64,000 nt of DNA from a virus, in IMG/VR virus record IMGVR_UViG_3300012953_006686, positions 29,700 to 93,699 of that record; one strand, written 5' to 3'. Positions 28,523 to 60,411 of the stretch are shown one piece after another. Numbering within the stretch: the stretch's first letter is position 1; each line of letters opens with the position of its first letter. The notes below the pieces were generated by a model. It did no database searches, was not told the DNA's origin, and saw only the letters and a list, made by a program, of their open reading frames with translations. Position numbers and translations under genes: made by a program.

Positions 28523-30172
28523 TTATATAAATTGTCTAAAATATGGCTCATACTTTTTGAAGTTTGCTTCACCGAACACTTCTTTATGTTTAAAGAATGT
28601 ACCGGCCTCTTCTTGACCTCGTTCTTTAATGTGCTCGTTTGATGTTGATAAGCCTTCAGAATTATAATAATATAATCCCAATGGAATGTCAACCTTTTTA
28701 AATTGTGCTCCTGATTCTACCATTCTTAAAAACATATCCCAGTCGCCTGCGTATGCTAAATCTTCATTAAAAAAGCCTGCCTTGTCGTGAATGTTTTTTT
28801 TCCACATAGGCATTGGTCCTGGCAGGCATTTGATCATATTTTCTCTGGAAAATTTATTCCTAGAGTGTTCATAAAAATTTCCATTTGATGAGTTATCTTC
28901 AAACGTTTCATTTGGCTTAGTTGTTTGATAGCAATCAGTATAAACCAAATCTATATCGCTAGAATAATGTAAATGTTTGGCAAGAGTTTCTAAATAGTGT
29001 GGTGAATGTCTATCGTCCACACAAGCCTGAGCAATAAATTCTCCAGTGGCTATTTTTATTGCCATATTCTCTGTTTCCATAACTGTGGCTCTATAGTCGA
29101 GCTTTTTATAAACTACATTTTTATGGTTCTTCATAAATTCTTCAATGTATTGTTCTTCGTTCTCTGGCGAATTTGCATTAATAATGATCAATTCAGATTG
29201 TTCAAAAATGGTCTGCTTTTGCATGTCTTCTAGAAAGCCTTGAATGTATTTTTCACCAGCATATAGAGGACAAAAAATAGTGACTTTTGGAAGATTGACT
29301 TTTCCATAAAATTCTACTTTATTATCGTCAATTAGTCCAAACCACTTCTGTAAAAGTGTGTTATTGTTTTCTCTAATAAAATCTAATAATTCTCTGCCTT
29401 TTAGTTTAAAGTAATCTTCACTAGCTGCACCAATAAGATTATTAGTTATCAACTTACATCCCAAGATACGAGCCTCAATTGAAAGCCTGTTATATGTCTC
29501 AAGCCATTGAGGAAAAAATACCAAATGTTGAACGCGCGCAAGATTAACCACAAAACTTTCAAATGGTTGTGGTTCTAAATATTCAAACGGTAAATTGTTT
29601 TTCTGACAAAAACCAATAGCAGCAGGCATGCCTTTATTTTTATTATTCGATCTTAAAAGAGCATACTTAATGCTCTTGGGCGTGTCTATATTATTCTCTA
29701 AGACTGATAATTGTTCTTCCGTCCAAATATTTCCGCTTAAACTAACAATGTTGTCTAATAGCAGATTCTTTTGAACTACGGAAGCGTGCTTCTTGCTTTG
29801 ACACATTACTGCTTGAGCACCTTTATAGAAAAACTTATTAATTATTTGCTGTTCAGGTGCTAAAAAATCTTTATATAGCGATGGATTATTAGAAGCAACG
29901 TACTTGTGATCGTGTTCTAAAATCGCATATCTATATTTATCAGATAGTGCATATTTAAATGCTTCAGGTAACATAAAAAAGTTTGCTACTATAAAAAAAC
30001 TATCTGTACTGTTATTAAGCAGTTGAGGGGTTACTTCAGATGACTTTACTGTAGTCACATTATATTTTTTACGCAGAAGATTAATGAGAGCATCATTACA
30101 CAACTCCGCTCCCCCTCTTATCTCATTTACAAAAAAATCAGATATAAAAACAATGTTAGTCATATTCAACAA
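28523..30172 (-). CDS. Two-domain glycosyltransferase (GT-B-like N-terminus, GT2 C-terminus)
   Basis: GGAE and ETYNRLSIEARILGC in the N-half; VTIFCPLY, VDD and AGDWDMFLR in the C-half. Confidence 0.8.
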   Translation of the reverse strand: MLNMTNIVFISDFFVNEIRGGAELCNDALINLLRKKYNVTTVKSSEVTPQLLNNSTDSFFIVANFFMLPEAFKYALSDKYRYAILEHDHKYVASNNPSLYKDFLAPEQQIINKFFYKGAQAVMCQSKKHASVVQKNLLLDNIVSLSGNIWTEEQLSVLENNIDTPKSIKYALLRSNNKNKGMPAAIGFCQKNNLPFEYLEPQPFESFVVNLARVQHLVFFPQWLETYNRLSIEARILGCKLITNNLIGAASEDYFKLKGRELLDFIRENNNTLLQKWFGLIDDNKVEFYGKVNLPKVTIFCPLYAGEKYIQGFLEDMQKQTIFEQSELIIINANSPENEEQYIEEFMKNHKNVVYKKLDYRATVMETENMAIKIATGEFIAQACVDDRHSPHYLETLAKHLHYSSDIDLVYTDCYQTTKPNETFEDNSSNGNFYEHSRNKFSRENMIKCLPGPMPMWKKNIHDKAGFFNEDLAYAGDWDMFLRMVESGAQFKKVDIPLGLYYYNSEGLSTSNEHIKERGQEEAGTFFKHKEVFGEANFKKYEPYFRQFI

Positions 30173-36691: not shown

Positions 36692-36766
36692 TGGAGCGAG
36701 TGACTGGATTTGAACCAGCGACAGCCACGTTGGCAACGTGGGGCTCTACCACTGAGCTACACTCGC
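36692..36766 (-). tRNA. tRNA-Gly(GCC)
   Basis: GCGAGTG...CACTCGC-TCCA acceptor, anticodon arm CCACG-TTGCCAA-CGTGG, GGTTCAAATCC T-arm, encoded CCA. Confidence 0.95.
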
Positions 36767-36767
36767 C

Positions 36768-36843
36768 TGGAGCCACTTATAGGAGTCGAACCTACGACCT
36801 GCTGATTACAAATCAGCTGCTCTACCAACTGAGCTAAAGTGGC
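36768..36843 (-). tRNA. tRNA-Thr(UGU)
   Basis: GCCACTT...AAGTGGC-TCCA acceptor, anticodon arm GCTGA-TTTGTAA-TCAGC, GGTTCGACTCC T-arm. Confidence 0.95.
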
Positions 36844-43504: not shown

Positions 43505-43841
43505 TGGTGGAAGCGGCGGGAGTCGAACCCGCGTCCACGATACCTCAAAAGGCAAGTCATTCACAAGCTTAGTTGGTTTTTATCAACTACCAACAAAATT
43601 AGACGGATATAATCTAATGCTGACCGCCCTGTTGCACTAGATGGTTTTAATTTTTACAACTTATCTGTTGTTTTGATTAGATTGGATAGAAGGCTCTAAT
43701 CGACCTCCTCGATTAAGCCGCTAAGCGTGCTGCTTCGAAGTGTGTGTTGTTATTTGCAACTATTATTTTGAACTTTTAAGGTGGTATCTTACCTACTTGC
43801 ACTCGACTTCATCCTTACCCTGTCGAAGCCATTTCGCTCCC
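43505..43841 (-). ncRNA. ssrA: tmRNA, tag (A)ANNNTHFEAARLAA
   Basis: 5' GGGAGCG pairs with 3' CGCTTCC-ACCA, including the G3-U70 alanine identity pair. T-arm GCGGGTTCGACTCCCGC. Tag reading frame GCA AAT AAC...GCG GCT TAA at 43757-43713 ends in LAA. Length 337 nt. Confidence 0.95.
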
Positions 43842-50226: not shown

Positions 50227-52596
50227 TTATAATCCGTAAATGTTATATTCCCATAAACAAACCAAATTAACTTCAACCTGATTTGCATTTGGATGTACAC
50301 TAACACCAACTACCTCACCAGCTGAATAATGATTAGAGCCAGTAAAAGTAAATACTGTTGTAGTAGATGCTGCGTTTGGACAACTAACAGTTTGTGTTTC
50401 TATTAGAACACCTTGTTCATTCATGTTAATATCGCCGTTCCCATTAGTTGCTTTAAAAAGCGCAATGCTTACATTTCCATTTTGAGAACCAGAGGGTCTA
50501 TAATAAACTCTCTTAAGTTGTCCTGAAAATGGCACAATCATTTGATTAATATAAGTTGCATTATTTGGCGCGTTAGCCTCACTAAGATTATAAAAAGGTA
50601 TAAATTTCATAGTTGTAGCTGTTGTATTATAAGCGTGCCTTGTTGGAAAAAACTGATGACCCATTACACTGCCGGAAACACTAAAACTTCCGGTTATTCT
50701 GGTTCTGTCGCCAGTATTCTTTCCAAGCGTGGCCCCTCGGGCTGTCTCAAAAGTGCTAGAACTTAAAGTAGTAAACTGACCAGTTGATTGATTAGTTGCA
50801 CCAACTGTAGTTCCATCAATCGCACCGCCGCGAAGATCAACCGTAGTTGCAATTCCTAAATCTGCAATTGTGCGGCCTGCATTTGTCCAGTTGGTATTCA
50901 TCTTAGAAATAGCAAGTCCGCCATCCCAGTGTAATCCATATTTCGTAGCCGTTCCAACCAAAAGACTAGAGCCGCTTAAGCCCGAAGAAGCAGAAAGTGC
51001 TCCATCGGCGCCGATCTTTAACACAGTGCTGTCGCTGTTATTTCTAACCTGAACTTGTGTAGTGCTATCGTTTTCGCCTAACTTTAAGCGTATGTGCTTG
51101 TCGGTAGCATTGCAATCGATAATAAGATGCCCTGTTTGGTTTTTAATAACACTATTAGCAGAATCATGAAATAATAATAAATCTTCCCCAGCACCAATTC
51201 GAATATATTGATTGTCTTTGCTGACCTTTAATCCTTGTGACGCTGTTAAATTGGCAGTAAGTAAATTATATGATGCGGATAGTACAGAGCCTGTAACTGA
51301 CTGAGCAGTGATGCCTTTTTGTGCATCATAAACTACAGCCTTTGAAGCGACAGCGCTTCCCGCAGATGCACCATCGACATAACCAATTTCTGTATCAGAG
51401 AGTGCAGATAGAGTACTTAATTTGGCGGCTGTAACATTACTATCGGCGCCGTCAAGTTTATTGAGTTCCGCTGCTGTAGATGATACATTAGTTCCACCTA
51501 AATTAAGTGTATTAATCCAAATTTTTCCGTTGTTCTGCCAACCATAAGCACCTACTTGTATAGAGCTTCCGGTTATACCAGCCGATGAGCTAAGGCTCGC
51601 TGTCGCAACTAAAGCTCCAAATGTGCCAGCTACCGCAGCTGCAGCTCCAATCACAACACCGTCAAGATTTCCTCCATTGATATCTGCAGTCGTAACAGTT
51701 CCTAAATCTGCAACTGTTCTGCCGGCGTTTGTCCAGTTAGTATTCATTTTGGAGATGGCTAAGCCGCCATCCCAATGTAGTCCATATTTTGTAGCCGTAC
51801 CGACTATAAGACTAGAACCACTTAAGCCAAGAGAAGCAGATACCCTTCCTGCTACTGTTAAGAGAGAGCCATCAAAAGTTAAATTAGATTCAACGGTAGC
51901 TTCATCACTATCTTTAAAAGTTGCAACACCATTAGCAGTCGAACCATCCCAAGATATTCCACCGCCACCAGAAGTTAGATCTGTTTCACTAATTTCATCA
52001 GAAATCCAATAAAGTTTTCCGTCTGATTTGACATAGAGAATTCCACCATCTCCATCGCTTGGTGCTGAAGGAGAACTTACTTCTCCGGAGACGTGAACGG
52101 CGCCAGCGACTTCTAATTTTTGATCGGGATCTGAAACGCCGATACCAACGTTGTCTCCCAAAATGGACATCTTGGTATTACCGCCGGTTTTAAACAAGAA
52201 TCTGTCGGAGCCATTATCATAATCAATCTGCCCTTCATCATTATCAGCAACAGAACCAAATATAAGAGAGCCACCATAAGCATTGGCAGACTGAAAATGT
52301 ATTTTAGGTTTTTCGCTAGACTCTAGAACTAAAAGTGTCCCATCAGCTGCCGAAATTGTTCCTGCCGATCCGTCCTTGAGATGAAGCTGTGCTTCTGGAC
52401 TGGTTGTTCCTATGCCCACTTCACCAGCTAAAACTGTAGCTGACGCAGATACACTAGTGTTGGTAATCTGAAGTCTAGGCAAGCGATTCGTTCGAAAGAT
52501 AATAGAGTCATATCCAAAATCAACTTGAGTATCTTCATCGTCCTCGTTTAAAAGATCTCCAACGTGCAAAGAGCCTGTGGTTGAATTATATGCCAT
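50227..52596 (-). CDS. Tail-fibre/spike-like virion protein with internal duplication
   Basis: G/S/T/A-rich, with VGIGTTSP..LH and VGIGVSDP..KLEV fibre repeats; duplicated ~55-aa block. Confidence 0.7.
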   Translation of the reverse strand: MAYNSTTGSLHVGDLLNEDDEDTQVDFGYDSIIFRTNRLPRLQITNTSVSASATVLAGEVGIGTTSPEAQLHLKDGSAGTISAADGTLLVLESSEKPKIHFQSANAYGGSLIFGSVADNDEGQIDYDNGSDRFLFKTGGNTKMSILGDNVGIGVSDPDQKLEVAGAVHVSGEVSSPSAPSDGDGGILYVKSDGKLYWISDEISETDLTSGGGGISWDGSTANGVATFKDSDEATVESNLTFDGSLLTVAGRVSASLGLSGSSLIVGTATKYGLHWDGGLAISKMNTNWTNAGRTVADLGTVTTADINGGNLDGVVIGAAAAVAGTFGALVATASLSSSAGITGSSIQVGAYGWQNNGKIWINTLNLGGTNVSSTAAELNKLDGADSNVTAAKLSTLSALSDTEIGYVDGASAGSAVASKAVVYDAQKGITAQSVTGSVLSASYNLLTANLTASQGLKVSKDNQYIRIGAGEDLLLFHDSANSVIKNQTGHLIIDCNATDKHIRLKLGENDSTTQVQVRNNSDSTVLKIGADGALSASSGLSGSSLLVGTATKYGLHWDGGLAISKMNTNWTNAGRTIADLGIATTVDLRGGAIDGTTVGATNQSTGQFTTLSSSTFETARGATLGKNTGDRTRITGSFSVSGSVMGHQFFPTRHAYNTTATTMKFIPFYNLSEANAPNNATYINQMIVPFSGQLKRVYYRPSGSQNGNVSIALFKATNGNGDINMNEQGVLIETQTVSCPNAASTTTVFTFTGSNHYSAGEVVGVSVHPNANQVEVNLVCLWEYNIYGL

Positions 52597-52630: not shown

Positions 52631-53038
52631 TCACTTATCTTCCGAACTTATTGATTTTTGAAATTTAGTCTTAACTTTATCTCCGACAGGAATTGGCTCA
52701 CCATCACCATCAATCCTTACAAATGTCATATCAGTTGTTAATACTGTTCTTTGAGAGCCGTTATATACGCTGTGTCTTCTCGCTTCAAGATGAATTGTAA
52801 TAGAGGTTTGACCAACTGCCCTAACTTCTCCGTAGATCTTAATTATCTGTCCAGGTCTCACCGGCTTATTAAAAATTACTTCAGAAATTCTTTTTGTGAC
52901 CATTCTCGGAGTATCGCAAGCCTGACACGCAAACGCAGCACCAGCTTCATCTAGCCAAGCTAACATCGTACCACCAAACAAATTGCCGTGATAGCCAACG
53001 TTTGCTGCTTTACAAAAATGAGTTGAGATTAATTCCAT
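52631..53038 (-). CDS. Hot-dog acyl-CoA thioesterase (YciA-like)
   Basis: HGNLFGGTMLAWLDEAG, FNKPV and VGQTSI. Confidence 0.88.
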   Translation of the reverse strand: MELISTHFCKAANVGYHGNLFGGTMLAWLDEAGAAFACQACDTPRMVTKRISEVIFNKPVRPGQIIKIYGEVRAVGQTSITIHLEARRHSVYNGSQRTVLTTDMTFVRIDGDGEPIPVGDKVKTKFQKSISSEDK

Positions 53039-53121
53039 TAAGCACTCTTATCGGCTGGTTTGTTTTTTAAAAACCAACTATACCACAGTGAACCAAAACC
53101 ATATACATATCTTGCGTGCAT
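53038..53121 (-). CDS. 27-aa microprotein coupled at both ends
   Basis: MHARYVYGFGSLWYSWFLKNKPADKSA; TAATG overlaps with both flanking genes. Confidence 0.45.
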   Translation of the reverse strand: MHARYVYGFGSLWYSWFLKNKPADKSA

Positions 53122-54311
53122 TATTTACCTCTTATATAACTATGCAACTCTTCATCAGAAACTTCATTCTTTCGAGGATTATAATCTTTAATATGTTGTA
53201 GTAGATTCTGATTATTAGGATTAAGAAGCACTTTTGGAGAAATATTGCCTTGCATACGAGCATTTAATATGAACGCAAGGTAAGCATCACTTATGGTAAA
53301 AGCTTTTTTTTTAACTTTCACATTGAGATTCTCATATATTCCTCTCTTAAATAATCCGAGATCAACGATAACGAAATCTTTAGTATCTGGGCGCCTCATA
53401 ACATTCTTTATGTGCACATCTTTAGGGCGCCAGCCTTTATCTTGCATAAAGTACTTCATCGCAGCCATTAGTCCTTCAGCCTCTGGGAATAAATCTTCCA
53501 CCGCTTTAAAAGTAGGTCCAGCCCACAGATCTCGATCAGTTTCTTCGTCTCCCGGCTCTGGCTGGTGAACAGGAACAACTTGTTTGTCAAAATAATATAA
53601 AACAGTATCTGTTAGTGCATCCTCAAAAGAACTTTTTACTGCGGGACTTTGAAAATTTATCTGTTTGGCTGTCTCCGTAGCCACAGTGTAGATAACGCTT
53701 TGAACATCTCCTCCGTGTGATATTTTGGTAACGGCATTTATAACATTTGCTACAATCTGATCGCGATTGACTAAAAATTCACGCATTTGATCTAATATTC
53801 GATTATTTTGAAGAGCATATTTCGTTATTTCTGCTACCGCCTCTGGATTTTTTAAAATTTTATCTTTTTTAATCGATGCGGTAGGTGCATCCTGCGCTGC
53901 AAAAAGATCTTGTGCTGTTTGCGGATCGAGAGGCTCAAGCAACTCCATTAAAATTATAGTGCTATCACCGCCAGTTATAAGTTTTTTAACATCTGGTAAA
54001 TACTTAGCGTATTTTTCTGGCATAAAGGCTTTTTCATCCATAGCAAACTTGTAGTTTTCTATTTCGCGAGCGTTGTCAGCCGGCACAACTTTAGCCGCTA
54101 ATCTTTCGCCAGTTCTGCTATTTTCAATTTCATATACAACGCCAAAAACGCCACGACCAAGCTCTCTGCGAACAGAAAACCCCATTGATTTTAAGAGAGC
54201 TTGAGCATCTCTTTGTCGATTTTGCTGACGAAGAAGGTGCGACGGCACTGCACCAGTTGCGTCTGTTTCTTCATTTACAAACTTCCGCCAATTTTCCATT
54301 AAGAGTTTCAT
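53121..54311 (-). CDS. Protein-kinase-like enzyme with ENW leader
   Basis: LGRGVFGVVY, LAAK, helix-C Glu, MELL, DVHIKN and IVDLG. Confidence 0.8.
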   Translation of the reverse strand: MKLLMENWRKFVNEETDATGAVPSHLLRQQNRQRDAQALLKSMGFSVRRELGRGVFGVVYEIENSRTGERLAAKVVPADNAREIENYKFAMDEKAFMPEKYAKYLPDVKKLITGGDSTIILMELLEPLDPQTAQDLFAAQDAPTASIKKDKILKNPEAVAEITKYALQNNRILDQMREFLVNRDQIVANVINAVTKISHGGDVQSVIYTVATETAKQINFQSPAVKSSFEDALTDTVLYYFDKQVVPVHQPEPGDEETDRDLWAGPTFKAVEDLFPEAEGLMAAMKYFMQDKGWRPKDVHIKNVMRRPDTKDFVIVDLGLFKRGIYENLNVKVKKKAFTISDAYLAFILNARMQGNISPKVLLNPNNQNLLQHIKDYNPRKNEVSDEELHSYIRGK

Positions 54312-54715
54312 TCTTCAGAATCTCCTGAATTGATAGTATCAACCAGCATCGCCATATGATACCAATTAAGTGAGACTTGTTCAGCATCAACATTTCCCTT
54401 TTCTATAGCATCTGCCAATAACAAAAACATTCCCCTAAATCTCTCACGATTTTCATCTGACACCTCTTCTAACGCTTTGGCAAAGCTACTAGTATACCAA
54501 GCAGGTGAAGGTGCAAAGTCTTGTGGGTGTATGCCTTTAGCGCCCATACGCAGCCATTTTGGTAAATCATCTAGGCTGACTTTTGCATGAATATGTCCTA
54601 TTTTTTTCGTATCCTTTAAAAAATTCTTAAAATAGCTATGAACCCAATCAATATCATCCATTTGCTGGCTTCCTTCTGCGAGGTATTTGTGCCAATTTTC
54701 AAGTAGGAGTTTCAT
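54308..54715 (-). CDS. ENW-leader hypothetical protein
   Basis: Starts MKLLLENWHKYLAE. Confidence 0.75.
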   Translation of the reverse strand: MKLLLENWHKYLAEGSQQMDDIDWVHSYFKNFLKDTKKIGHIHAKVSLDDLPKWLRMGAKGIHPQDFAPSPAWYTSSFAKALEEVSDENRERFRGMFLLLADAIEKGNVDAEQVSLNWYHMAMLVDTINSGDSEE

Positions 54716-55329
54716 ATATTAGCCCCTTTAAAGACAACACCTTTCCACTCTATATCATCTACACCCCAATAATCATGATTACCCAGTCTGCCTAGAGCAT
54801 CCCACTTTTTAAGAAATAAATTGACTGCCATGGCATCATATAGAGGAATTCCAAAAACACTATTGAGTGGTGCTCCGTTGAAGTATTCTGTAGATAATTC
54901 TGCAGGTGTTATAGCTTCAATAGAGTCCATAAATTGTTGGGCAGTTTGACCACCTGCACCTTCTCCATATTTGTGAGACAAATATTTTCCAATTTTGTCA
55001 AATTCGCTTCCTTCTTTGGGTACTTTAGAGCTTTTGTCTCCAGATTGTGGGTGACTTGGATCCATTTTAGCAAACCAAAAAACAGAAGCAGTCCCAGGTC
55101 CGCTGGCGCTTATTCCATCAAAAGGTAAATACATTCCCTTTGTCCAATCGCCAGATCCAGTTCCAGTGCTCCTATAAAAAGCCACAGGACCATCGAGAGT
55201 TTTTACAATGACAATATGACGATCGTCTTCGGTAAGAAATTCATCTATTATAATAGAACCCAAGTTAAATTTATCTTCAACTGTTTCTTCGGTCAAATAC
55301 TTCCGCCAATTTTCCATTAAGAGTTTCAT
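54712..55329 (-). CDS. ENW-leader hypothetical protein
   Basis: Starts MKLLMENWRKYLTEE at 55329; FYRSTGTGSG..W...YLPFDG core. Confidence 0.75.
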   Translation of the reverse strand: MKLLMENWRKYLTEETVEDKFNLGSIIIDEFLTEDDRHIVIVKTLDGPVAFYRSTGTGSGDWTKGMYLPFDGISASGPGTASVFWFAKMDPSHPQSGDKSSKVPKEGSEFDKIGKYLSHKYGEGAGGQTAQQFMDSIEAITPAELSTEYFNGAPLNSVFGIPLYDAMAVNLFLKKWDALGRLGNHDYWGVDDIEWKGVVFKGANI

Positions 55330-55988
55330 TTTTGTTTTCTCCACTCTTCCTGCCCAGTTGATAGATTTCTTATTGCTGTAATTTCTACGTTTTTTGCTGG
55401 ATCAAAAACAGAAATAGCATTTGAAGTTAAAGCTAGTTTTCCAGTTTTAGTCATTCTTCCAGGATTTGACCACCAGATTCCATCAAAACCGGCTTTTTCT
55501 AATATTTTTTTAAATTCTTGAATGCTTTGAGTCATCGGAATTGAAGTGTTAATTTTTTGAGAAGGATTATTGGGGTCTCGAACTGATTGTGGAAAATAAT
55601 GTACTAAGTGATCAATATTCATTTTTAAATATTTTCCATTAAGTTTAACTGTTAACATATATTTGCCGCCTAAAGATTTTATGTGATCCGGATCTGAAAG
55701 ATTTTTCTTATCTAATCCGAACATAGGACCAAAATAAGAATCCAAATTATATTTACCTCCACCGTGTTCTCCTTCGGCAGTGTTTGCGCCGGTTTTGGAA
55801 GGATCAAACTTTTTAAATGATCTCGAAGATACGTGTCCAGCCGTATGATCCGTTAGATTTGCAGCTCCATTTTCAGCAAGACGACCGACAATAGTATTAA
55901 GGACTTCTTGTGTATATGGTACTGTACCTCTGATGGCATTCTCATTCTCATTCAAATACTCTCGCCAATTTTCTATTAAGAGCTTCAT
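55326..55988 (-). CDS. ENW-leader ADP-ribosyltransferase-like protein (ART-PolyVal-like)
   Basis: Starts MKLLIENWREYLNE. GHxS..FKKFDPSKTG...GGG...YF and GFDGI...ISVFDP resemble ART-PolyVal. Confidence 0.5.
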   Translation of the reverse strand: MKLLIENWREYLNENENAIRGTVPYTQEVLNTIVGRLAENGAANLTDHTAGHVSSRSFKKFDPSKTGANTAEGEHGGGKYNLDSYFGPMFGLDKKNLSDPDHIKSLGGKYMLTVKLNGKYLKMNIDHLVHYFPQSVRDPNNPSQKINTSIPMTQSIQEFKKILEKAGFDGIWWSNPGRMTKTGKLALTSNAISVFDPAKNVEITAIRNLSTGQEEWRKQK

Positions 55989-58576
55989 ATAAATCTTCTC
56001 CACACCTCTCCGAGATCTTTAAGATCATCAAAGTTGCGTTGTTTCTCGGCAGGAGGCTGCCCAAGATTAATGCCATTTTTGCGAGCTTCTTCTTGTAAAG
56101 CGCCCATAAATGCAGCCGCAATTTCGTCTTCGTCATCCATATCGCCAGTGACTAATTCATAAAATTGCTCTACAAGCTTGTCAGGGGTGTCTGCGTCTAC
56201 TTTAAAAGTTATGCTATAGCGAACGTCACCCCCGGAATCTACCGCGCTTTTATTGCGGATAACAAGCCTATAATCAGTATTTAATTCTTCTCTCACGGAA
56301 CGAGTTAAGTATTCTCTGAGCATAAGCACAAACTCTCGGCGATCAACGAGATCAAACAAAATTCTTGTTTCAATGCCTAATTGTTCTGGATCAAAATCAT
56401 AAGAAATAGATGCCCACGCTTCGTAAGAGTCAGTGTAGTGTTCTCCGTCCCATTCAACATCCCACTCATAAGTATCATTGTTTAGACCATTCTCAAGTTT
56501 TTGAACCAAGCTCATATAAGCGTGCCCTTCAAAATAACCATTTTCTTTGGCGTATTGTTCTACAAGAGCTTGAAATTTATCTCGGTCATCATCCAGCGCA
56601 TCAACTCCTTTACAATAATTCTCATAGCCGTCAGCATCATAAACTACAGGTTGGTTTTCTAATCCCGGAACAAATCTGGTGTTAAACTCACAACGCCAAA
56701 TAATAACCTCACTGCCTTCAGGGCCGCCTTTATAGATTGCTCCTTTGTCTTCCTCAAATAGCGGAACAATAGCGCCCATGTCTTGGTTGTAATAGTATTC
56801 GTTTAAATAATCTGCAATAAGCCTACCTTCGGATACGTTTGGAAGCTGTTTCCATTCATCAAGCTCCCAAGTAAGCATAATTTTGCCTTCTGGGTAAATA
56901 ACATAATCGCCTTCGCCTGAATCATCTCTAACGTGAAAGTCTACCTCGCAATTAGCGTACTTTCCAGAATTCCATTTTTCTCTAACTTTGGCGCAATCAC
57001 GCTTAAGCATTTCTTCAACATCGCCAACCCACTCAGGCGGCATTTCTTCTTCTGTTTCTTTATCTTGTTCAACTTGTCCAGTAAAATCGTTCATTGGAAC
57101 ATTTGTAAGGTTTGCTAATAATTCTTTACGACCTCCATAATGCGCTGTGTCTTCGTAAGAGCCTCCATAAATTCTAAAATCATCTAAATCAACTTTGCCA
57201 CCAGATTTAGGCAAATTAGCAATAACTTCTTCTTGTTTTTGTCTTGCCCATTTTGTTACAGTACCGACAATACCAGGGATCTTGATTCCATACACATATT
57301 TTTCAGGAACTGCTACTTCTGTGCCTTGATCTTCTCCAGCGTCATACTTTTCCCAATCAAAATAGCGAAATTGCCTTAATCTTATTCGAGAAACTGGGTC
57401 TAAATCTAAGTTAGTACCATGAAGATATCGGTTTTGCTCAGTAAAAATTTCATCATACTCTTCAAGCTCTTGCTCAGCGCTTTCTATGTTGCCTGTGTTT
57501 GTTTCTGAGAGTAAGTCCTCCGTTTTCACCACATAAGCGATTGCTCCATGACCTTGTGCTTCCGCAACAGCACATTTATAGTACTCTTGTTTTGAACCAT
57601 CCCGGCTTGGAGGCGTATGACATGATGTAATCTTTTCAAAATCAGACATTCGCATGACATCAACAGGGTGTCGAGTCAAAATAATAGAATATGTATCATT
57701 TTCAAGGCCAGGAACATCTTCTCTAATTGTTTTTGAGTTATTTAACCAGTAAGTACCCATGTCAATAAACTTTGTGTCAGGCACCACTATCGGTTTTCTT
57801 GTGCGTACTGGTTTTCCGTAGCGCCTATCACCTGCATCTTGCTGATCTCTACGGTGTTGTTCTTTCTGTTTCCATGAATCTTGATCAGAATAATCCATAG
57901 CAAACGATTGTAAACGTTCGTGACCCGCGCCGCCAGCATATAACTCTAATTGGTTCAAAATTTGCTTATATCTTTTAAGTTCTTCGTCACTTAATGCATT
58001 TTCGGTCTCTCCAATAGTATATTGAAGTAAATGTTTGCCGCCAATAGCACCTTGACCTTCTTCAGGTCTATCTTTATACTTATAATCGCCAATTTTCTTT
58101 CTTATTTGCAAATATTCCTTCATAAGGATGTCTAGTTTGGCAAAATATTTACCGATTTTCATTTGGAGCTTCTTTTTTAGCATTTTGGGCGGGGGTCCAT
58201 CTCCATATATTCGTTCTACCGTGTCATCAACAGTTTTGTCGTGGTCTTCCCACTCTCTTTCAACGGAAACCAAGCCTCTTTCCCAATCAACGTCGACTTT
58301 TAGTACTTGTTCAAGCATATGAACCCACTGTCCAAGTTCAGATTGTCTATCTTTTACTGGAAATGGTATAACAAGGCGTGTTTTATCACCAAAAAGCTCA
58401 TCAAAAGCCAATACGCCCCTTGGATTATCCGCTAGTTTTTGCAAAATTGCTTCAACGCCCAGCATTTCGGAGTCAGAAATCTCCCGAAGTAATACTTCTG
58501 TTTTTAAATCGGAATTTTCCGAGATTTTTTCAAGCAAAAGTGTTGCTTTCTGTAAAATTTGCTCGTCAGTAAGCAT
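55985..58576 (-). CDS. Large acidic hypothetical protein (863 aa)
   Basis: Start MLTDEQ after SD GAAGGA; TRHPVDVMRMSD..SCH motif; C-terminus EVWRRFI. Confidence 0.8.
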   Translation of the reverse strand: MLTDEQILQKATLLLEKISENSDLKTEVLLREISDSEMLGVEAILQKLADNPRGVLAFDELFGDKTRLVIPFPVKDRQSELGQWVHMLEQVLKVDVDWERGLVSVEREWEDHDKTVDDTVERIYGDGPPPKMLKKKLQMKIGKYFAKLDILMKEYLQIRKKIGDYKYKDRPEEGQGAIGGKHLLQYTIGETENALSDEELKRYKQILNQLELYAGGAGHERLQSFAMDYSDQDSWKQKEQHRRDQQDAGDRRYGKPVRTRKPIVVPDTKFIDMGTYWLNNSKTIREDVPGLENDTYSIILTRHPVDVMRMSDFEKITSCHTPPSRDGSKQEYYKCAVAEAQGHGAIAYVVKTEDLLSETNTGNIESAEQELEEYDEIFTEQNRYLHGTNLDLDPVSRIRLRQFRYFDWEKYDAGEDQGTEVAVPEKYVYGIKIPGIVGTVTKWARQKQEEVIANLPKSGGKVDLDDFRIYGGSYEDTAHYGGRKELLANLTNVPMNDFTGQVEQDKETEEEMPPEWVGDVEEMLKRDCAKVREKWNSGKYANCEVDFHVRDDSGEGDYVIYPEGKIMLTWELDEWKQLPNVSEGRLIADYLNEYYYNQDMGAIVPLFEEDKGAIYKGGPEGSEVIIWRCEFNTRFVPGLENQPVVYDADGYENYCKGVDALDDDRDKFQALVEQYAKENGYFEGHAYMSLVQKLENGLNNDTYEWDVEWDGEHYTDSYEAWASISYDFDPEQLGIETRILFDLVDRREFVLMLREYLTRSVREELNTDYRLVIRNKSAVDSGGDVRYSITFKVDADTPDKLVEQFYELVTGDMDDEDEIAAAFMGALQEEARKNGINLGQPPAEKQRNFDDLKDLGEVWRRFI

Positions 58577-58578
58577 TT

Positions 58579-59250
58579 TTATTCCTTCATCGATTTGGAA
58601 CCGCGACATTTCCACTTTTTGCGGGATAGTGCGTTGGCACAAGGTGGATTTTTACACTTTTTGATCTTTGCAGAACGAGCGCAATAAGCATCTCCCTTAG
58701 CTGTTCCGGGCCTAATGCGGTCACCGCCATCTTTGGCTTTACCTGCTTGCCCAAATGAGCGGCACTTGCCATCTACTCTTTTGGCAGAGCGCTTTCCTTT
58801 GGATGGCTTACAGGGTTTTTTCTTTTTTTTTTCGGCTAATACCGCTTCAAGTTCTTCTTCAATGATAGCAAGAAGCTCTTGTTGTTCTTCGTCTATTGGT
58901 TCACAATTTTTAACGCGTTTGCCGGGCTTCGTAGGGCTTTTTTTGGTTTTTTTGCCAGTTTTCGCGCCAGGAGAATACCCCTTCCAACACTTACCTTCGG
59001 TTTCAAGTTCTTTTTCTTCTTGGATTCCGTATGTTTTACAGGGGTCCTGTCCACATCCACAATTTTTCTTCTCGCCTTCCTCTAATTTGTCATCATCGGT
59101 CTCGTCGAGTATCTGCTGGATGCGCTTTGCTTGACCAGCATGCATTTTAGATGCGTTTTCTAGCTCACCAACAATGGTTTTGAGTTCTTCTTCGTGTTCT
59201 TTAGTATGTGACTCAGTAAACCTTTGCCAATTTTCAAGAATTGTCTTCAT
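58579..59250 (-). CDS. ENW-leader protein with basic Cys-rich modules
   Basis: MKTILENWQRFTE; CWKGY..KNC and AYCARS...KKWKC modules. Confidence 0.75.
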   Translation of the reverse strand: MKTILENWQRFTESHTKEHEEELKTIVGELENASKMHAGQAKRIQQILDETDDDKLEEGEKKNCGCGQDPCKTYGIQEEKELETEGKCWKGYSPGAKTGKKTKKSPTKPGKRVKNCEPIDEEQQELLAIIEEELEAVLAEKKKKKPCKPSKGKRSAKRVDGKCRSFGQAGKAKDGGDRIRPGTAKGDAYCARSAKIKKCKNPPCANALSRKKWKCRGSKSMKE

Positions 59251-59689
59251 TTTTTGATATCTCCAAAGCTTTCTCCAATAAATAGATCGGAATTTCAGTA
59301 TTAGCTATATCTTTTATGTCTTCAATTGTTGCCCATTTCCAGTCATCGTGTTCGATTTGACCAGATTCTGGGTTTGGTTTGTCTACATTTACATCTCCTG
59401 TCCATATTTGAGTTAAGAAAACGTATTTTTGTGGCTTTGGTTCTCCTAGATAAGTAAGGTCTGAGACTTCGCAAGATAAATTAGCTTCTTCTTCTAATTC
59501 ACGTATAGCTCCTGCCTCTATGGATTGGTCTTCTTCATCTATATGTCCTCCTGGCATCGTCCACTGACCCTCTCGTTCATCAACGTCTGAGCGTCTAATG
59601 ATAAGAAATTGCTGCTCATCATTTAAACAAACAACAATTCCAGATGTTTTTGAGTCACCTTCGGTGAGAAATTTATCCCACTTATTCAT
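59234..59689 (-). CDS. NUDIX hydrolase with short W-leader
   Basis: WTMPGGHIDE...AIRELEEEAN Nudix box; starts MNKWDKFLTE. Confidence 0.88.
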   Translation of the reverse strand: MNKWDKFLTEGDSKTSGIVVCLNDEQQFLIIRRSDVDEREGQWTMPGGHIDEEDQSIEAGAIRELEEEANLSCEVSDLTYLGEPKPQKYVFLTQIWTGDVNVDKPNPESGQIEHDDWKWATIEDIKDIANTEIPIYLLEKALEISKNEDNS

Positions 59690-60411
59690 CTTCTACAAGC
59701 GCGCGGTTCGTCTTCAAGAGCTACACATAATTCAGCTATAGCCAAAGACATATCTAAATTTTGTATAGGAGAGACCCATATCATATTTTCTTGAACCTGT
59801 AACTCCGGGTACCTTTCTATATCTACGCCCCATAATATACCAACAATCTCCCCCTGTGTATCATATATCACAGAACCGCTACTGCCAAACCACCCATATG
59901 TATTCAACATTAACTGTGGTCCACGACCGTCTAAGTGTTCAACCCCGGCTACGTAGCCACGATATGTCATTAAACTATGCCAGGAAGGGTGACCAGAATA
60001 AGTTATACGAGTTCCAATTGAAGACATTTCGCTTCTAGGCGAATAACGAATACCTCTGCCCTCTAGCTGATTGCCCTCTCGAAGATATAAAACCGATATA
60101 TCGTGAGCAACATCTGAATAAACTAAAATCGCCGTCTCCATAGTAGAGCCATTAATAACATAATACTGCTGACCAATGCGACCATCAGCAACGTGTTGCG
60201 CTGTTAAAACTAGCTGCATATCGCGGTATTGAACAATTCCTCCGGATCCGTGACCCCTGCCGTCTGTAATCTTAACTGCGGCTTCTCTAACTTTTCTTTC
60301 ATTGCGATCAAGTCCGTCTTCAATTGAAATTGTTTGAAAATCCCCACCACCGTCAGCAATTGCTGTTGTAGAAATTGACAGTCCTAATAATAATGCTAAT
60401 AATTTTTTCAT
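59686..60411 (-). CDS. Exported trypsin-like serine protease
   Basis: Signal peptide; catalytic triad motifs LTAQHV, DISVL and GSSGS. Confidence 0.85.
   Translation of the reverse strand: MKKLLALLLGLSISTTAIADGGGDFQTISIEDGLDRNERKVREAAVKITDGRGHGSGGIVQYRDMQLVLTAQHVADGRIGQQYYVINGSTMETAILVYSDVAHDISVLYLREGNQLEGRGIRYSPRSEMSSIGTRITYSGHPSWHSLMTYRGYVAGVEHLDGRGPQLMLNTYGWFGSSGSVIYDTQGEIVGILWGVDIERYPELQVQENMIWVSPIQNLDMSLAIAELCVALEDEPRACRR

Follow-up and report, generated by a model that had tools for sequence, protein, structure and literature searches.

Proteins that enter the host together with phage DNA are known for only a few laboratory phages, and they bear on host takeover and on escape from bacterial defence. 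In phage T4, internal proteins carry a short N-terminal capsid-targeting sequence (CTS), in which residues 4 and 7 are the main ones for targeting and residues 8 and 10 for processing (PMC9026906); in IPII and IPIII, the N-terminus reads MKTYQEFIAE-A in the record. The T-even internal proteins are diverse defence proteins that have only the CTS in common (PMC3012670), and Alt is a packaged ADP-ribosyltransferase (ART) that is processed by gp21 at both termini (PMC9026906). Giant phages such as phiKZ, 201phi2-1 and SPN3US also package many proteins in the head, whose propeptides are cut after Glu by a T4-related protease and which are then ejected (PMC9026906, PMC5694885). Here we analyze an array of genes with a shared leader peptide in a 64,000-nt stretch of viral DNA (positions 29,700 to 93,699 of the IMG/VR record IMGVR_UViG_3300012953_006686; hereafter, the window). 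The window makes up the right-hand 64 kb of a contig of 93.7 kb, which has a CheckV completeness of 51% and carries all of its genes on the minus strand.

Six genes of the array begin with related N-termini, all of which were located at the minus-strand starts given in a preliminary description, and their bodies are indeed unrelated, each falling into a different BLAST cluster. Four of them carry a full tag, MKLL[MLI]ENW[RH]x[YF][LV]xE, while in the other two it is degenerate (MKTILENWQRFTE) or shortened (MNKWDKFLTE), respectively (Table 1). The array genes are densely packed, with stop and start codons overlapping as ATGA. Across the coding strand of the full contig (93.7 kb), we counted seven occurrences of the core motif, W-x-x-[FYW]-[LIVMT]-x-E, against an estimate of about 0.8 by chance from residue frequencies; five lie at the starts of open reading frames (ORFs) in the block, one at a C-terminus, and one is internal.

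The tag had been taken to differ from the address tag of T4, which was not borne out by the comparison. The short tag, MNKWDKFLTE-G, is in exact T4 register, with W4, F7, L8, and E10 at the four key positions occupied by Y4, F7, I8, and E10 in IPII and IPIII, and the long tag has the same core after a four-residue prefix (W8, Y/F11, L/I/V12, and E14). As in T4, a short N-terminal propeptide is common to otherwise unrelated proteins and has two aromatic residues three apart, followed by [I/L]-x-E. Judged from its sequence, the tag is the T4 CTS design in extended form, in an uncultured lineage. It departs from T4 in that the leader is usually 14 residues long, begins with an additional MKLL-x-E-N prefix, and has W where T4 has Y, and in that up to eight full-form tagged genes are found per genome, in tandem arrays.

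We consider it likely that the block is a hypervariable array of internal-protein-type genes, whose products would be packaged into the head by a CTS-like leader and injected into the host. In the proposed mechanism, each cargo would be made behind a short amphipathic N-terminal propeptide working as the T4 CTS does, with its two aromatic residues (W8 and Y/F11 of the long tag; W4 and F7 of the short one) docking the protein on the prohead scaffolding core. The [L/I/V]-x-E that comes next would be the site at which a gp21-type prohead protease removes the tag, and in the NUDIX protein of the array the cut is predicted to fall before G11. The mature enzyme would then stay in the head and enter the host with the DNA, and the set encoded in the window would include an ART-fold protein, a protein kinase, and a NUDIX hydrolase. 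In an 863-amino acid (aa) protein encoded in the middle of the array, this tag would instead be C-terminal, and the cleavage site would lie between it and the cargo. In addition, the nearly identical 35-42 nt at the start of each cassette would permit recombination at the leaders, by which cargo would be swapped between related phages.

IMG/VR was searched with a back-translated pattern that fixes only residues 1-4, 6-8, and 11 of the leader, and at least 120 leader stretches were found, with up to five tandem copies. The statistics were drawn from 150 unique leaders among the matches listed, in which W8 and Y/F11 are fixed by the pattern. At the positions left free, R9 is present in 82%, [LIVM]12 in 96%, and E14 in 85% of these leaders, after which conservation collapses, and [LIVM]-x-E lies within residues 12-19 in 144 of the 150. 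The codons vary synonymously, Leu being encoded by six different codons at position 12 and Arg by five at position 9, which points to selection on the peptide. The preliminary description had proposed a scan for N-terminal leaders on diverse cargo, and this is what we found: the 149 full-length tagged proteins among the matches listed form at least 84 clusters, 54 of them singletons. The Pfam families represented among these matches are P-loop and zeta-toxin-like kinases, NUDIX, Pkinase, PGDYG, SAM lyase, RNase T, HAD, and GNAT, and most of the cargo clusters have no Pfam family.

The leader is restricted to viruses. In 596 Gb of prokaryotic genomes, the same pattern gave 68 matches, only 10 of which are full leaders. 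All 10 lie on 1.5-16-kb contigs of metagenome-assembled genomes, most of them with two leaders or with cargo identical to that of a complete 203-kb phage relative of the contig (G004), and they are probably mis-binned phage DNA. Leader-bearing phage genomes that are at least 98% complete contain one to eight full-form leaders each, always on the coding strand, and a control with the reversed pattern gave none.

The preliminary description had also expected the cargo to vary between relatives, and both G004 and a close relative, L115, carry other tagged genes. G004 keeps the NUDIX gene (with the tag SWKGFLGE-G), the signal-peptide protease upstream of it, and the large protein, and the slot syntenic to the ART-fold, 205-aa, 135-aa, and kinase genes is occupied by other tagged genes. 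Over 6 kb, L115 and the window share 85% identity, which breaks off 35 nt inside the leader located after the 863-aa gene; beyond this break are four tagged genes unrelated to those of the window. The sole other match to L115 in the variable region is the 37-nt leader of the 205-aa gene, at 97%. Within the window, the first 31 nt of the kinase-like gene are identical to the leader of the 205-aa gene. Because the similarity to L115 ends at leaders, the leaders mark break points, as expected of recombination joints.

These breaks could also be read to mean that the common start arose passively, through cassette recombination or through optimized translation initiation, and that the peptide itself has no function. 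The leader DNA is somewhat more alike within a genome than between genomes (0.81 vs. 0.74), and the ATGA overlap with an upstream stop codon, seen in 68 of the 150 leaders, as well as the position of the breaks between relatives, would fit such an origin. However, the amino acids are conserved while the codons vary, the leader is kept in 11 of 11 database homologs of the ART-fold protein, down to 43% identity, and the 863-aa family has the motif also at its C-terminus, a position in which a role in initiation is impossible. We therefore regard a functionless leader as very improbable.

The reading of the leader as a packaging signal draws on the genes that accompany it. The gp21 prohead protease (Peptidase_S77, PF03420) is encoded in all seven leader-bearing genomes of at least 98% completeness (180-203 kb), including G004 (gene at 123334-123987), and gp23 (PF07068) is present in each of the five leader-bearing near-complete genomes checked. 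The cleavage site of T4 gp23, SFLTE-A, aligns with ELL[RK]E-[ASN] in the capsid proteins of the leader phages. In G004, all 12 core motifs fall within the first 30 residues of ORFs, where about 1.7 are expected anywhere; one of them is on an acidic 182-aa protein of the head module, encoded one small gene upstream of gp21, and another is in the protein encoded directly after gp21. The parallel with T4 thus comprises gp21 and gp23 homologs, a cargo set that varies among related phages, and an ART-fold cargo and a C-terminal tag that correspond to Alt and to its C-terminal processing, respectively (PMC9026906, PMC3012670). As a packaged ART that is cut by gp21 at both ends, Alt is a precedent for both of the latter.

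It is also conceivable that the tag addresses another virion compartment, such as the tail lumen, the baseplate, or the neck, instead of the capsid interior. The block is far from the head module and closer to baseplate and tail genes on the contig, and its ART-fold cargo resembles a domain of a podovirus pre-ejectosome protein. On the other side, the structural-module genes with the motif are found only in the head module, no tail or baseplate gene of G000 or G004 is tagged at a terminus, and the [LIV]-x-E end fits gp21, which is active inside the prohead. Such a destination seems quite improbable to us.

In the head modules of G001-G005 (L121-L125), the protein encoded after gp21 is conserved and starts with MK..(L)K..LKP(L)VK.C(I/L)KE.(L)LE-(E/D)G, an N-terminal helix ending in L-L-E, and G003 encodes a 72-aa protein starting with MDFKLFLNE-E. 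Both proteins may be further core proteins with propeptides of their own.

The C-terminal tag was followed in the family of the 863-aa protein. Its gene most likely starts at the ATG at 58576, which gives the 863 residues of the preliminary description, and the EVWRRFI reported at its extreme C-terminus is real and conserved in the family. The fetched loci contain 31 homologs, and W[KR]x[FY][LI] lies within the last ten residues in more than 20 homologs; because of this conservation, we dropped the possibility that EVWRRFI is a by-product of the Shine-Dalgarno sequence (GGAG) of the next gene. The close homologs (35-40% identity, ~800-870 aa) have no N-terminal leader and end in [LI/T]xE-x(2-5)-W[KR]x[FY][LI]xx, and in the window protein an L-G-E site lies just before the C-terminal tag. 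More distant homologs (in L093, L017, L077, and L003) instead have an N-terminal leader and are without the C-terminal motif, and the homolog in L023 combines a short N-terminal form with the C-terminal motif. In the AF2 model of the window protein (pLDDT 74), residues 840-863 have pLDDT below 50 and are assigned by DSSP as coil followed by a short terminal helix at 854-862, which corresponds to the tag. No meaningful match to this protein was found in Pfam, PHROG, PDB profile, Foldseek, or Atlas searches. The tag of this family can thus be at either end, with the Glu site always between tag and body, which suggests an address module with a release site and is hard to explain otherwise. Tagging of one conserved family at either terminus is a further departure from T4.

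Three cargo folds or families were recognized in the array. The NUDIX assignment made earlier is solid (PF00293, 68.3 bits vs. a gathering threshold of 21.1). The kinase assignment of the 396-aa protein holds at the level of kinase PHROGs (E of 6e-7) and of readable motifs, namely a glycine loop (GRGVFG), AAKV, DVHIKN (D-x-x-x-K-N), and VDLG, whereas the match to Pkinase (PF00069), which covers the N-lobe only, falls just short of the cut-off (30.3 vs. 31.7 bits).

The 220-aa protein, previously called ART-like, gave no family match, and its resemblance to ARTs stands at the level of fold. Its AF2 model, built with 11 homologs (pLDDT 78), shows the leader as a separate helix (residues 3-16) followed by a linker. 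In VIA-align, the model matches MbcT with a Z of 8.7 and a pre-ejectosome chain of cyanophage A4 (ART-like domain) with a Z of 7.0, and the top 50 chains are mostly of the ART fold, including NatT, diphtheria toxin, PARPs, ParT, and pertussis S1; Foldseek gives MbcT a probability of 0.93. The model thus points to an ART fold, with moderate Z values that speak to the fold level only. In the family alignment, H52, S54, Y80, and E215 are invariant. The family also has a conserved ending, E-W-[RK]-K (window 55326-55343; E215 and W216 nearly invariant; EEWRKQK in the window copy), which is like the first half of the tag core without [FY][LI].

No match was found for the 205-aa protein in Pfam, PHROG, or Atlas, or for the 135-aa protein in Pfam or PHROG. 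The tag of the 223-aa protein is without the L/I/V position, and its mature part has an isoelectric point of ~9.3; a homolog in L079 has the full leader MKLLMENWRNFLAE, and the copy in L115 is 94% identical. Within the block, nucleotide similarity to cultured phages is confined to the region encoding the Lys/Cys-rich C-terminal half of the 223-aa protein, which matches hypothetical genes in Vibrio phages of ~41 kb at 70-79% over 80-140 nt.

Given such cargo, the leader might serve as a docking sequence or pro-sequence for a role outside the head and without packaging, either as an inhibitory propeptide that silences toxic enzymes in the producing cell or by binding a phage or host factor (a chaperone, a protease adaptor, or a membrane site). 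Many of the cargos are potentially toxic (ART fold, zeta-toxin-like kinases, nucleases), and the tag is a detachable helix on a flexible linker, as for any short linear binding motif. However, four key positions and their spacing match the genetically defined CTS of T4, a tagged protein is encoded inside the G004 head module near gp21, and the tag is found only in genomes with T4-type head genes. We hold this explanation to be unlikely, and its inhibitory variant is compatible with packaging into the head rather than exclusive of it.

The phages that carry the leader can be placed by their capsid protein, for which the nearest isolates are Flavobacterium phage immuto (48% identity), Microcystis phage Mel-JY01, and Rhodothermus phage RM378, which assigns them to the Far-T4 group. 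The genome that carries the array is best explained as that of an uncultured marine myovirus of this group, as far as can be read from such comparisons; that the lineage is uncultured is another respect in which it differs from T4. The contig is collinear with G004 over ~100 kb. In the literature searched, the leader strings MKLLLENW, MKLLMENW, and ENWRK were not found, nor was a paper that joins capsid targeting with marine or metagenomic phages, and the Far-T4 paper (PMC4360716) is silent on both leaders and internal proteins. The best hit of a blastn search with the leader DNA, in Vibrio phage 2.275.O (E=3), was rejected as a chance match, being internal to a gene and reading DLMENRGMYFIDE.

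Core binding, cleavage, packaging, and injection of the tagged proteins are inferred here from sequence, and several points weigh against them. No cultured phage with the leader was found by tblastn with an 885-aa ORF and a HAD cargo or by blastn with the leader DNA, and immuto, the closest cultured phage by capsid protein, has core-motif matches at control level only. The gp21-like protease gene that the preliminary description had named as a sign of support is present in the near-complete relatives, but PF03420 was not found on the window's own contig, about half a genome, so that the protease is taken from relatives; the G004 head module (116-136 kb) lies just past the point matching the contig end, which would account for this absence. 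The full leader was found in only one of the five head modules inspected, the other four carrying related N-terminal helices that end in [LI]-x-E. The tag of the 223-aa protein, lacking the L/I/V position, may not be processed. Finally, the leader cargos are mostly enzymes of 13-100 kDa and many are acidic, whereas the internal proteins of T4 are small and basic.

The packaging signal proposed here can also be set against systems other than T4. The propeptides of the giant-phage inner body are long and heterogeneous, and no short common leader is reported for them (PMC9026906, PMC5694885), whereas here one tag of 10-14 residues is reused. The Dar antirestriction proteins of phage P1 are anti-defence cargo that is loaded into the capsid and injected, as we propose for the tagged proteins. 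Loading of the Dar proteins is hierarchical and dependent on specific partner proteins, and is not known to involve a common cleavable leader or a T4-type core; capsid-targeting signals are reportedly discussed for P1 as well. In encapsulins, a short terminal cargo-loading peptide, at either terminus, directs unrelated enzymes into a shell of the HK97 fold. The encapsulin peptide, however, binds the shell protein itself, and encapsulins are not known to involve removal by a protease, DNA, or injection, so that the likeness is an analogy only.

On an extended reading, the chances of which seem to us evenly balanced, the tag would be a position-independent address module, consisting of a W-x-x-[FY]-[LIV] helix and a gp21 site on the cargo side, that works at either terminus. 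It would mark a very large and rapidly changing repertoire of effectors, packaged in the head and injected, across uncultured Far-T4 phages of the ocean, with the leader DNA as the joint at which they are shuffled. This repertoire would comprise at least 84 families among the matches listed, with ART-fold proteins, protein kinases, zeta-toxin-like kinases, SAM lyase, nucleases, and NUDIX enzymes among them, and what uncultured phages inject could then be read off their sequences. If the leader is a true CTS, a motif of 14 residues would allow one to recognize the proteins injected by an entire, abundant group of uncultured phages in the ocean. The motif would then also yield effector candidates of unknown function by the hundreds, and relatives would exchange effector genes at the joint formed by the leader DNA. 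Tag placement at the N- or the C-terminus within a single protein family would extend what is known from T4 in a testable way. In phage-based delivery of proteins, the leader might find use as a second and orthogonal tag for packaging.

Table 1. Genes of the array and other features of the window. Positions are those of the window; genes on the minus strand start at the higher position.
Feature	Position	Strand	Tag or assignment
Kinase-like protein, 396 aa	53121..54311	-	Full tag MKLLMENWRKFVNE, codons 54270-54311
135-aa protein	54308..54715	-	Full tag MKLLLENWHKYLAE, codons 54674-54715
205-aa protein	54712..55329	-	Full tag MKLLMENWRKYLTE, codons 55288-55329
220-aa ART-fold protein	55326..55988	-	Full tag MKLLIENWREYLNE, codons 55947-55988
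863-aa acidic protein	55985..58576	-	N-terminal tag absent; C-terminal tag DLGE-VWRRFI (~55988-56014)
223-aa Cys/Lys-rich basic protein	58579..59250	-	Degenerate tag MKTILENWQRFTE
NUDIX hydrolase, 151 aa	59234..59689	-	10-residue tag MNKWDKFLTE, codons 59660-59689
Trypsin-like serine protease	59686-60411	-	PF13365; Sec-type signal peptide
4HBT-type thioesterase	52631-53038	-	PF03061; untagged
789-aa fibre-like protein	50227-52596	-	
tmRNA gene; tRNA genes Gly-GCC and Thr-TGT	43505-43841; 36692-36843	-	
HNH endonuclease, 167 aa	37908-38411	-	PF14279, 63 bits

The T4 late promoter, TATAAATA, was not found near the block and occurs below chance across the window, and scans for sigma-70 promoters and terminators gave only the level of shuffled sequence. 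The trypsin-like serine protease is encoded directly upstream of the NUDIX gene and is conserved in G004 and L115. As a processor of the tags it was rejected on account of its Sec-type signal peptide, which the cargos lack; it is probably exported. On the other side of the array, the thioesterase gene follows after a gap of 82 nt as the first untagged gene downstream.

Elsewhere in the window, the HNH endonuclease ends in ...ISELWKSYLWE, placing the core motif at the extreme C-terminus with I-S-E directly before it. This may or may not be a tag, as a single case is within chance (~0.8 core motifs per contig). The phage encodes its own tmRNA, with the tag peptide ANNNTHFEAARLAA, along with the two tRNA genes. 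The fibre-like protein has an internal duplication of ~45 residues (SGLSGSSL.VGTATKYGLHWDGGLAISKMNTNWTNAGRT...), and only its first 55 residues match a 727-aa protein of G004 (130712-132895), which is encoded between the gp21 and capsid-protein genes; it looks like a case of a shared N-terminal anchor with a swapped distal part.

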